Assembly (NCBI GenBank): GCA_963704765.1
Contig: CAVPHQ010000001.1
Location: 1,864,024-1,928,023, forward strand
Length of the DNA stretch: 64,000 nucleotides
Direction: 5' to 3'
Source of the DNA: an uncultured Alphaproteobacteria bacterium
GTDB lineage: Bacteria > Pseudomonadota > Alphaproteobacteria > Rhizobiales > Xanthobacteraceae
Shown in pieces: positions 27,586-30,109 of the stretch. The notes under the pieces were generated by a model, which saw only the letters and a list, made by a program, of their open reading frames with translations, ran no database searches and was not told the DNA's origin. A program made the translations under genes and the position numbers. Each line of letters starts with the position of its first letter. Positions within the stretch are counted from its first letter, which is position 1.

Positions 27586-30109
27586 TCACACCCGCTCCAC
27601 GAAACTCGCCACCACCCGCTTCTGCCCGGCCTTGTCGAACTGCACGCTGAGCTTGTTGCCGTCCACGGCCTGAATCTCGCCGTAGCCGAATTTCTGGTGA
27701 AACACGCGCTCGCCGCGCGTGAACGCGACCGGCCCGTCGCCCGGGTGCGCCACGATCTTGCCCTCGATCGTCACCGGCGCGCGCACGAAGCGGCCGGCGC
27801 GCGGCTCCTCGAAGCCCTTGGCGCGCTCGCCTTCCTCGGCCTGCGCCCGCTTCCAGCCCGGCGTTTCGTAGCGCGAGCCGAAACCCTCGGCGCGGCCATA
27901 GCGCCGCGCCTCGCCGAAGCCGCCGTTCACCTCCACGACCTCCACGTCCGCCTCCGGCAATTCGTCGAGGAAGCGGCTCGGCAGCGTCGAGCTCCACAGC
28001 CCGTGAATGCGCCGGTTGGAGGCGAAATAGATGCGCGCGCGGCGCTTGGCGCGCGTGAGGCCGACATGCGCCAGCCGCCGCTCTTCTTCGAGGCCCGCGC
28101 GGCCCTGCTCGTCCAACGAGCGCTGGTGCGGGAACAGCCCCTCCTCCCAGCCGGGCAGAAAGACGGTGTCGAACTCGAGCCCCTTGGCCGCGTGCAGCGT
28201 CATCAGGTTCACGGCGTCCAGCGCCTCGCCGCCCTCGACATCCATCACCAGCGCGACGTGCTCGAGGAAGCCCGCCATGTTCTCGAACGTCTCCATCGAG
28301 CGCACGAGCTCTTTCAGGTTTTCCAGCCGCCCGGCGGCGTCGGCGGTGCGCTCCTTCTGCCACATGTCGGTGTAGCCGGATTCCTCGAGCACCATCTCGG
28401 CCAGCTCGGTGTGCGGCATGTGCTCGAGCTGCCCGCGCCAGCGATCGATGCCGGCGACGAGATCGCGCAGCGCCCCGCGCGGCTTCGGCTTCAGCTCCTC
28501 GGTCGCCGAAAGCGCGCGCGCGGCTTCGAGCAGCGGCGCGCCATTCCGGCGCGCGTATTCGTGCAGCTGCTGCAGCGTGGCGTCGCCGAGCCCGCGCTTG
28601 GGCACGTTGACGATGCGCTCGAAGGCGAGATCGTGCGTCGGCGAGCACCACGACGCGGAAATAGGCGAGCGCATCGCGGATTTCCTGCCGCTCGTAGAAG
28701 CGCGGGCCGCCGATCACGCGATACGGCAGCCCGAGCGTCACGAAGCGGTCCTCGAACTCGCGCATCTGGAACGACGCGCGCATCAGGATCGCGATCTGCG
28801 ACAGCGCGTGGCCGCCGCGCTGCAGCGTCTCGATCTCGTCGCCGATCGAGCGCGCTTCTTCCTCCGAATCCCACGCGCCCGCGACGCCGACCTTGGCGCC
28901 CGGCTCGCCCTCGGTGCGCAGCGTCTTGCCGAGGCGGCTCTTGTTTTGCGCGATCAGGTGCGCGGCGGCGGCGAGGATATGGCCGGTCGAGCGGTAGTTG
29001 CGCTCGAGCCGGATCACCTTGGCGCCGGGGAAATCGTGCTCGAAGCGCAGGATGTTGTCGACCTCGGCGCCGCGCCAGCCATAGATCGACTGGTCGTCGT
29101 CGCCGACCACGCAGAGGTTGGCTCCGCTCTTTATTCCCTCATCGCCGGGCGACGGCGCGAGCGCCGTCTTCGCGCCGGAAGTCCCGGCGATCCAGGTCTT
29201 GCGGAGCGGCCATCAGCCACTGGATCACCGGGTCTCGGCGCTTCGCGCCGGCCCGGCGATGAGGGAGAGTGCGCTGCGCCAGCAGCCGCAGCCACAAATA
29301 CTGCGCCACGTTGGTGTCCTGATATTCGTCCACCAGCATGTAGCGGAAGCGGTTCTGGTATTGCGCCAGCACGTCGGCGTGCTCGCGGAAGATGCGCAGG
29401 TTATGCAGCAGCAGGTCGCCGAAGTCGGCGGCGTTCAAGGTCTTCAGCCGCTCCTGATAGGCCGCATAGAGCGCCTTGCCGCGGCCGTCGGCGAAATTGC
29501 CGCCCTCGCCGGCGGTGACGTCGGCCGGCATCAGCCCGCGGTTCTTCCAGCCGTCGATCATCGAGGCCAAGAGCCGCGCCGGCCAGCGCTTCTCGTCGAT
29601 ATCGGCGGCGGCGATGATCTGCTTCATCAGCCGGATCTGGTCGTCGGTGTCGAGAATCGTGAAATCGTTCTTGAGCCCCACCAGCTCGGCGTGGCGGCGC
29701 AGGATTTTCGCGCCGATCGAGTGAAACGTGCCGAGCCAGGGCATGCCCTCGACCGCCTCGCCGACCATCGTCGCCGACGCGCGCTTCGCATCTCGCGCGC
29801 GGCCTTGTTGGTGAAGGTGACGGCGAGGATTTGCGACGGGTACGCGCGGCCGGTGGCCAGGATGTGCGCGATGCGCGTGGTCAGCACCCGCGTCTTGCCG
29901 GTGCCCGCGCCCGCCAGCACCAGCAGCGGCCCGTCGAGCGTCTCGACCGCCTCGCGCTGCTCCGGGTTCAGCCCTTCGAGATAGTCGGGCCCCGCCGCCG
30001 CGCGGGCGCGCGCGGCGATGCCGCCCGGCCGCGGCGCGGGCGGATCGAAGGGGATGTCCTCGGGGTCCTCGGCAGGCCCCGGGGCCAAGTTTTTCAAGGG
30101 ATCGGCCAC
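27586..30109 (-). CDS. uvrD: UvrD/Rep-family DNA helicase II, interrupted by a 148-nt palindromic element and two further frame shifts (about 28646, about 29788)
   Basis: Motif [10 protein letters not shown], motif [10 protein letters not shown], motif [18 protein letters not shown], then [13 protein letters not shown] and VGLTRAKRR. The pieces are spread over track ORFs 29627..30109, 29139..30116, 27536..29110 and 27586..28674. Confidence 0.85.
29125..29272. mobile_element. MITE/REP-like composite palindromic element (family B) inserted inside the uvrD ORF
   Basis: 148 nt lie between the codons for ...LRLLAQ and [13 protein letters not shown]. Terminal inverted repeats are TTCCCTCATCGCCGGGC (29133-29149) and GCCCGGCGATGAGGGAG (29250-29266). 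Same architecture as 27461-27555 and 36624-36716. Confidence 0.65.

Follow-up and report, generated by a model that had tools for sequence, protein, structure and literature searches.

The window analysed here, a 64,000-nt (64-kb) stretch of a contig from an uncultured alphaproteobacterium of the Xanthobacteraceae, carries on its minus strand a uvrD gene for DNA helicase II whose coding sequence contains a palindromic insert between helicase motifs II and III. As assembled, the gene falls into four frame segments (Table 1), which are collinear in frames -1, -3, -1 and -2 when searched by tblastn with the UvrD proteins of eight relatives. All four segments retain 60-85% identity to orthologues and have no internal stops, and the UvrD-helicase, UvrD_C and PcrA/UvrD tudor domains of Pfam run on across the breaks and are complete. 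Two of the breaks are single-base shifts, past each of which normal UvrD sequence picks up in the new frame. The third coincides with the insert, whose 148 nt count two to three linker codons on either side of the repeat, and past which the frame resumes one base out of phase (net +1). A TGA within the element closes the upstream frame, whereas the last stop of the downstream frame is the TGA at 29213-29215 (insert positions 58-60). Deleting one base at any insert position from 61 to 131 yields an open 49-codon insert, as an earlier note made from the letters of this window had calculated.

The insert is a nested palindrome. Its terminal inverted repeats, at 29135-29150 and 29251-29266, are complementary at 16 of 16 positions; the 16 of 17 reported in the earlier note applies when they are made one base longer. 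Within them lie two hairpins of opposite orientation with 9-bp stems, ATCGCCGGG/CCCGGTGAT (eight Watson-Crick pairs and one G/T) and ATCGCCGGG/CCCGGCGAT (nine of nine Watson-Crick pairs). In unit 1, the loop is itself a nested hairpin, CGGCGC-GAA-GCGCCG, and unit 2 has a nested loop hairpin of its own, GACGGCGC/GCGCCGTC, with TGG and GAGGGA as the complements of the CCA tail and CCTC tag of unit 1. Folded as single-stranded DNA, the insert region reaches -62.7 kcal/mol (z = -7.2), a value equalled by none of 200 dinucleotide shuffles, and the bare insert refolded with ViennaRNA gives z = -8.0. Anatomy and fold thus uphold the claim that an element resembling a repetitive extragenic palindrome (REP) or a miniature inverted-repeat transposable element (MITE) sits inside uvrD between motifs II and III. 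The 16-mer terminus occurs three times in the window against 0.24 expected. The enlarged loop (29236-29250, minus strand) also carries GCGAAGC, as do the inserts of three relatives (loci L008, L017 and L081); d(GCGAAGC) is a DNA mini-hairpin of exceptional stability.

Table 1. The uvrD gene, its palindromic insert, related repeats of the window, and types of insert peptide found at the same site in homologues
Feature	Position	Strand	Details
uvrD (DNA helicase II)	27586-30109	minus	four frame segments: 29804-30109, 29274-29798, 28649-29124, 27586-28644
uvrD single-base shift	~29801	minus	one base missing, after ...NKAAREM
uvrD single-base shift	~28646	minus	one extra base, after ...AYFRVV
uvrD insert, 148 nt	29125-29272	minus	between motif II (DEYQD) and motif III (GDDDQSIY)
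TGA ending the upstream uvrD frame	29139-29141	minus	insert positions 132-134, within the right-hand tag (GATGAGG)
REP unit 1	29221-29267	minus	tag CTCCCTC (CCTC), stem ATCGCCGGG/CCCGGTGAT, 19-nt loop, tail CCA
Spacer between REP units, 26 nt	29195-29220	minus	partly self-complementary
REP unit 2, inverted relative to unit 1	29135-29194	minus	TGG, stem ATCGCCGGG/CCCGGCGAT, 33-nt loop, GAGGGA
AATAAAG heptamer	29129-29135	minus	directly after right terminus of uvrD dimer
Canonical CGTC-3-like REP dimer	27461-27555	+	CCTC tag, 5-nt loops CTTGA/TCAAG, ~30 nt past uvrD stop codon
AATAAAG	27558-27564	+	directly after right terminus of intergenic dimer 27461-27555
Intergenic REP dimer, CGTC tag	36624-36716	+	like uvrD dimer; CGTCGTCATGGCCGGGC ... 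GCCGGGCATGACG
Intergenic palindromic repeat, different family	38850-38966	+	GTCATTCCGGGGCGCG ... CCCGGAATGAC; 48-nt arms, 83% complementary
Insert peptide type			VIPGR..PES..PGMT/APRND
Insert peptide type			SLPGLTRQSI..DGSPG.D..RRPGDD
Insert peptide type			SPRLRGEV..PGEGD..PPHPNPLPASGERE
Insert peptide type			GLILRDA..APQDE..PHPEE
Insert peptide type			SPLVGEG..PSPTRGEG
Insert peptide type (the window's own)			SSPGR.E..SPGDP....KPGHD

The element is an inverted dimer of CGTC-type REP units, and its closest family is CGTC-3. The CGTC superfamily is defined by an unpaired terminal tag CGTC (variants TGTC and CCTC) and an 8-9-bp stem with A and T at its first two positions; its members have a loop of 4-5 nt and a 3-nt tail (consensus CCA), are mostly inverted dimers, occur in many copies per genome, chiefly between genes and downstream of open reading frames (ORFs), and reside predominantly in alphaproteobacteria (PMC3733652). 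In the uvrD copy, the tag CCTC lies ahead of the unit 1 stem (29261-29264) and is mirrored by GAGG behind unit 2 (29137-29140), both 9-bp stems start with AT, CCA follows unit 1 (29221-29223) and TGG precedes unit 2 (29192-29194), and the units are opposed with tags outward and tails inward, like canonical intergenic copies. With CGTC-3 REPs it thus has in common the CCTC tag, the 9-bp AT stem, the CCA tail, the inverted dimer, an alphaproteobacterial host and, for its neighbour past the uvrD stop, a place downstream of an ORF, and differs in its loops, which are themselves hairpins with a GCGAAGC-type triloop. Two inverted REP units that form a long hairpin are likewise a feature of the REPIN/RAYT system (REP doublets forming hairpins and REP-associated tyrosine transposases; the GTAG REPs of Pseudomonas and E. 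coli), whose copies are many and mostly intergenic, whereas no dedicated transposase is known for CGTC REPs (PMC3733652).

An Rfam search found no family at the uvrD element. The label MITE was considered and dropped. The element shares with bacterial MITEs such as Correia/NEMIS, ERIC and Nezha a size of ~140 bp, terminal inverted repeats of 16-17 nt (here a perfect 16/16) and the occasional in-frame intragenic copy, but its termini are REP units and not those of a known insertion sequence, and it lacks a target-site duplication, as no direct repeat is common to the flanks ...GCGCACT and ATAAAGAG.... Because of this absence the element was not filed as a MITE. Intron, intein and programmed frameshift were considered briefly and set aside, since the element is too small, has no matching features, and shows a break that resembles the errors found throughout the window.

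Altogether, three related REP dimers occur within the 64 kb, one in uvrD and two intergenic. The earlier note had credited both intergenic copies with the architecture and termini of the insert. Both are indeed dimers, and the copy at 27461-27555 shares the terminus CTCCCTCATYGCCGGGC with the uvrD element; the copy at 36624-36716 departs from it in having a CGTC tag. The former translates as IAGLDPAIH / (D)ARVKPGHE. The heptamer AATAAAG, of which there are only three occurrences in this window of 67% G+C, trails the right termini of the two CCTC-tagged dimers in two of the three cases, and provides the codons GGA-ATA-AAG in the uvrD insert. This link suggests that the uvrD copy derives from the REP subfamily of its own genome, and the repeated unit of the CCTC-tagged subfamily may extend beyond the inverted repeat on one side.

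With respect to the protein, the insert takes the place of G241 in the loop LLAGDT-G-KVMIVGDDDQ of E. coli UvrD, with T240 and K242 as its neighbours (PDB 2IS1/3LFU), and falls between positions 236 and 244 of Pfam PF00580. It would sit in a short surface loop that joins the helix after motif II to the strand bearing motif III. The E. coli G241 loop belongs to domain 1A. An AlphaFold2 model of an insert-bearing homologue (P0106), built on a 60-sequence alignment, assigns the insert (residues 272-318) a predicted local distance difference test (pLDDT) score below 50. The insert has no secondary structure in it, and on its two sides stand a helix modelled with confidence (257-267) and the strand of motif III (324-327). 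According to the model, the insert looks like a tolerated, disordered surface loop that would leave the fold undisturbed.

The same site was then compared in relatives by a scan of one genome per species with an insert-less UvrD segment as query, which returned 80 loci. The distance from DEYQD to GDDDQSIY is 22-27 residues in most alphaproteobacteria, and to this extent the earlier note was correct in crediting UvrD proteins elsewhere with just a few residues at this point. It does not extend to the lineage of the window: 61-73 residues are found there, in frame, in the complete or isolate genomes of Bradyrhizobium sp. STM 3562 (complete), B. elkanii WSM2783 and Rhodopseudomonas infernalis HC1, in an uncultured Bradyrhizobium, and in metagenome-assembled genomes (MAGs) of Nitrobacter, Pseudolabrys and Pseudorhodoplanes. 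The uvrD ORFs of these insert-bearing relatives are unbroken, at 850-950 codons from stop to stop, and in six relatives the frame was seen to stay open through the element. Their insert DNA is strongly palindromic (z from -4.2 to -7.1), with the exception of the Nitrobacter copy, which has decayed in one of its units (z = -1.0). A homologous segment devoid of palindromic structure, which would have refuted the earlier note, is therefore not what these orthologues show. The notion that foreign DNA entered a site left vacant in relatives is nevertheless not supported, as Bradyrhizobium, Rhodopseudomonas, Nitrobacter, Pseudolabrys and Pseudorhodoplanes all carry in-frame repeats there. Inserts of similar length are non-palindromic in Pseudahrensia, Mycoplana and a Hyphomicrobiales MAG (L057), with z from +0.8 to -1.4, and a Phyllobacteriaceae insert (L048) is intermediate (z = -2.7).

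In some MAG contigs the gene is interrupted as assembled. The uvrD repeat of L017 (3496-3651) has an in-frame stop, and uvrD is split into two ORFs in L081, L082 and L085; all four are MAG contigs resembling long-read assemblies. Interruptions of this kind probably explain why all 120 best protein matches are shorter than 570 aa.

Those 120 best protein homologues form a lineage-enriched list, so that counts drawn from it are not prevalences. At least 15 extra residues occur at the motif II-III site in 62 of them, with up to 89 extra, and no other position has more than 15 extra residues in any homologue along the alignment of the N-terminal ~500 residues. At least six types of insert peptide, unrelated to one another, can be told apart (Table 1). 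DNA was folded for four further types, one example each (z from -3.9 to -6.7), and for a second example of the window's type; all five are palindromic, with z from -3.9 to -6.8 overall, and one of them has more copies in flanking intergenic DNA. The type VIPGR..PES..PGMT/APRND contains the repeats Br-REP1/Br-REP2. A relative of that occupant is present in the window as well: the intergenic repeat at 38850-38966 is of the family, with peptide VIPGR...PGMT, that many MAGs as well as Bradyrhizobium sp. STM 3562 have in frame in uvrD, so that the genome of the window holds several of the repeat families that use this site. Homologues with 94-96% identical flanks carry different repeat families or none. 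The occupant of the uvrD site turns over quickly between close relatives, and the motif II-III loop appears to be a lineage-wide landing pad in which the families vary among even close genomes and the frame is always open. Six homologues (P0028, P0029, P0046, P0057, P0087 and P0111) have tandem elements, or a fragment of one family fused to another, with up to 111 aa between motifs II and III; such occupants resemble a layered intergenic REP cluster, yet are in frame.

An ordinary lineage-specific protein loop, maintained by selection on the protein and only incidentally palindromic, is scarcely credible as an account of these inserts. The non-palindromic inserts of similar length at this site in Pseudahrensia, Phyllobacteriaceae and Mycoplana speak for it, but the z-scores of the repeat-bearing inserts run from -4 to -8, the same sequences recur in intergenic DNA, the peptides come from at least six unrelated families, AlphaFold2 predicts disorder, and stem DNA is conserved while spacer and linkers, which are coding too, diverge. 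This last point is best seen in four orthologues of the SLPGLTRQSI type (from Rhodopseudomonas, two Bradyrhizobium and Pseudorhodoplanes), whose REP units are 97.6% identical pairwise. Over 640 nt of uvrD on their flanks, by comparison, identity at fourfold-degenerate sites is only 69%, and neither the 12-nt spacer nor the linkers are constrained in their variation. The nested 6-bp stem around the GAA triloop of the window's type, for its part, varies on both sides with pairing kept in four genomes (CGGCGC/GCGCCG, CGCGAC/GTCGCG, CAGCGC/GCGCTG and CGACGC/GCGTCG), and REP unit 1 of the window is equal in length to its counterparts in L008, L017 and L081.

Such conservation of the units would fit selection on the hairpins and continual conversion by the genome's own repeat pool alike, and a role of the hairpins at the nucleic-acid level inside uvrD is possible. 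A stronger version, in which the motif II-III loop of Bradyrhizobium/Xanthobacteraceae is a dedicated and recurrently reused hot spot of integration or conversion, serving at least six families, with its REP units actively maintained, is offered as a tentative proposal that we consider doubtful. If true, it would imply a DNA- or RNA-level function inside the uvrD coding sequence, such as control of uvrD expression, or alternatively a mechanistic tie between REP propagation and UvrD, which as a helicase works on hairpins and keeps recombination in check. Repeat types b and f may have been inserted independently and in opposite orientations, or may just as well go back to one old insertion that was later remodelled, the dimer being nearly symmetric and loop expansions being found on either arm.

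The frame break must be read against the condition of the assembly. All genes examined in the window show approximately one frameshift per 1-1.5 kb, and protein similarity resumes each time. A frame tracker based on the G+C content of third codon positions counts 48 direct same-strand frame switches in the 64 kb, of which ~30 are of the extra-base and 18 of the missing-base kind, some being true gene boundaries. To illustrate, the aminopeptidase P gene (pepP, 31232-33058) runs through five frames, and the ATP-binding cassette (ABC) transporter cluster that follows (33189-35762) through seven. These window-wide shifts point to an unpolished long-read assembly or other indel noise, and make any pseudogene call in the window unsafe. 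At the window rate, the chance of a shift in any given 148 nt is roughly 10-20%, and the break in the insert therefore says little. The net +1 break is most likely one spurious base, the true length being 147 nt. We put the probability at about three in four that the locus is a CGTC-type REP dimer in uvrD, probably translated in frame as a disordered loop of ~49 aa, with a break that is probably an assembly error and at a site that is a lineage-wide landing pad. A clean in-frame insertion spoiled by one spurious base is also the first of the two readings given in the earlier note, and the ~48 switches, mostly of the extra-base kind, together with the two further shifts in uvrD itself, speak for it.

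In the real genome, on this account, the dimer would be translated within UvrD and leave the helicase core intact, as in many relatives. The UvrD protein would then be made with its loop and be functional. Two causes together are proposed for the reuse of the site: the loop would tolerate nearly any insert with an open frame, and a REP once settled in it could be joined or replaced by others, much as REP clusters between genes grow, through the machinery, whatever it may be, by which CGTC REPs move or are converted.

Several observations weigh against the account just given. The loops, both of them nested hairpins, measure 19 and 33 nt and so are far longer than the canonical 4-5 nt; the element is nonetheless classed as a CGTC variant because loops of other lengths occur in some Bradyrhizobium CGTC-1 and some CGTC-3 sets (PMC3733652) and because its neighbour at 27461-27555 has loops of 5 nt. 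A search for an accurate copy from the same species found none, the best protein flank identity being ~82%; two metagenome scans, with the exact left junction and with a degenerate right junction, gave no match, and the scan of genome contigs (one genome per species) gave no close relative, so that the true frame of uvrD cannot be read directly. Lastly, all clean relatives with the window's repeat type read the left unit as S-x-P-G...PGDP, which in the window is a frame different from the upstream uvrD frame. This mismatch implies either an independent insertion here or two missing bases in place of one extra.

If the left linker and the element itself had each lost a base, the true insert would be 150 nt long, end ...SPGDEGIKS and have the frames of L008/P0106. 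All clean relatives of types b and f do read S-x-P-G in the left unit, which is frame '0' in the window, and P-G-x-D/E in the right unit, which is the window's downstream frame, and one missing-base error is already documented in uvrD. However, two errors within 150 nt are a priori ~60 times less likely than one extra base at the window rates, the peptide similarity to L008/P0106 is intrinsic to the REP sequence and carries no evidence for the frame in use, and the CCTC tag and AATAAAG tail suggest a subfamily of the window's own genome, whose frame need not match that of orthologues. We regard the 150-nt version as improbable. An attempt to infer the frame from the likeness of the peptide to L008/P0106 (SPSSPGR...PGDP) was rejected, since the same REP DNA is translated alike. 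Placing the spurious base by the symmetry of the palindrome also failed: the outer stems are perfect, unit 1 matches three relatives in length, and the allowed interval (insert positions 61-131) comprises the spacer and the atypical loop of unit 2, for which there is no reference.

A real frameshift, by which the REP dimer would truncate UvrD after motif II, abolish functional UvrD and possibly make the organism a mutator, is unlikely. As assembled, the upstream frame does end at a TGA inside the element with the downstream frame offset by +1, and mutator phenotypes arising from REPs in repair genes have been raised as a speculation (PMC3733652). Against this stand the background of one shift per 1-1.5 kb with similarity resuming each time, the four uvrD segments with their 60-85% identity, absence of internal stops and complete Pfam domains, and the same kind of element held in frame by relatives. 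The alternative raised in the earlier note, a disrupted uvrD in a mutator background, is accordingly not favoured, and present evidence is no ground for labelling uvrD a pseudogene or the organism a mutator. Very improbable, too, is an artefact in which misassembly or repeat collapse spliced a REP dimer from elsewhere into uvrD. The assembly is rich in errors and a closely related dimer lies just 1.6 kb away, but the site is occupied in dozens of independent assemblies and isolate genomes, the flanks meet uvrD codons exactly on both sides, and the uvrD copy is unlike its neighbour in loops and spacer. We consider that the REP dimer in uvrD with one spurious base best describes the locus, and that gene callers will split or truncate uvrD here, partly because of the repeat and partly, quite separately, because of indel errors.

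In-frame palindromes of this sort have a parallel in the Rickettsia palindromic elements (RPEs), reportedly described by Ogata et al. in 2000. The likeness drawn in the earlier note is supported: RPEs are palindromic repeats inserted in frame in surface-exposed segments of genes for functional proteins, as the uvrD element probably is, and they too have repair and replication targets (uvrB, uvrC and dnaE). The present host differs in being a free-living, high-GC member of the Hyphomicrobiales and not an obligate intracellular bacterium, the sequence family is another one, and here a single site is reused by several families. RPE-4 and RPE-6 have been equated with CGTC-4 and CGTC-1, respectively (PMC3733652).

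A REP inside UvrD is already known. The UvrD/REP helicase RPE_2137 of R. palustris BisA53 has a CGTC-3 REP at residues 278-288, SSLPGSTRQSI (Di Nocera, De Gregorio & Rocco 2013, BMC Genomics 14:522; PMC3733652 Additional file 3). The position in UvrD is the same, and the window copy adds unusually large loops; it is also a dimer, whereas the tabulated case was scored as a single unit. That survey found an excess of intragenic REPs in UvrABCD, RecBCD, Pol I and DnaE2. It states that, Xanthomonas recB aside, the insertion site varies among genes that belong to one functional category, and it has no report of many repeat families at one site (PMC3733652). The repeats Br-REP1/Br-REP2 of Bradyrhizobium japonicum (Hahn et al. 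2016, PMC5082802) occupy the uvrD site in STM 3562 (L003: GGGGAATCTCGAGATTCCGGG...CCCGGAATGACGG) and have a relative at 38850-38966 of the window. They are not the family of the window's uvrD occupant, and have been described only in intergenic regions and 3' untranslated regions (PMC5082802). Our literature searches found no report of several families sharing the uvrD site, of turnover between close relatives, or of unit conservation above that of neutral sites, and the multi-family hot spot with its strong conservation of REP units is, in our estimation, modestly novel.

According to this comparison, several palindromic repeat families, selfish or semi-domesticated, have used one loop of an important repair helicase as a common parking place across a bacterial family. 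As a natural system, it bears on how REPs spread, by targeting or by gene conversion, on how a protein tolerates a junk loop of ~50-110 aa, and on whether some mechanism underlies the excess of REPs in repair genes that was pointed out in 2013.

Beyond the repeats, the 1.1 kb between the divergent starts of uvrD and pepP (30091-31212) has a G+C content of 0.52 compared with 0.67. It gives no coding-frame signal, and Pfam matches none of its ORFs, such as the one of 205 aa at 30480-31097; this stretch may be a foreign or decayed insert. A second segment, 1.9 kb at 12033-13979, has a G+C content of 0.535 and likewise no coding-frame signal. Rfam places, above gathering scores, an alphaproteobacterial two-piece (permuted) transfer-messenger RNA (tmRNA) gene at 18398-18761 and a thiamine pyrophosphate (TPP) riboswitch at 10066-10187.

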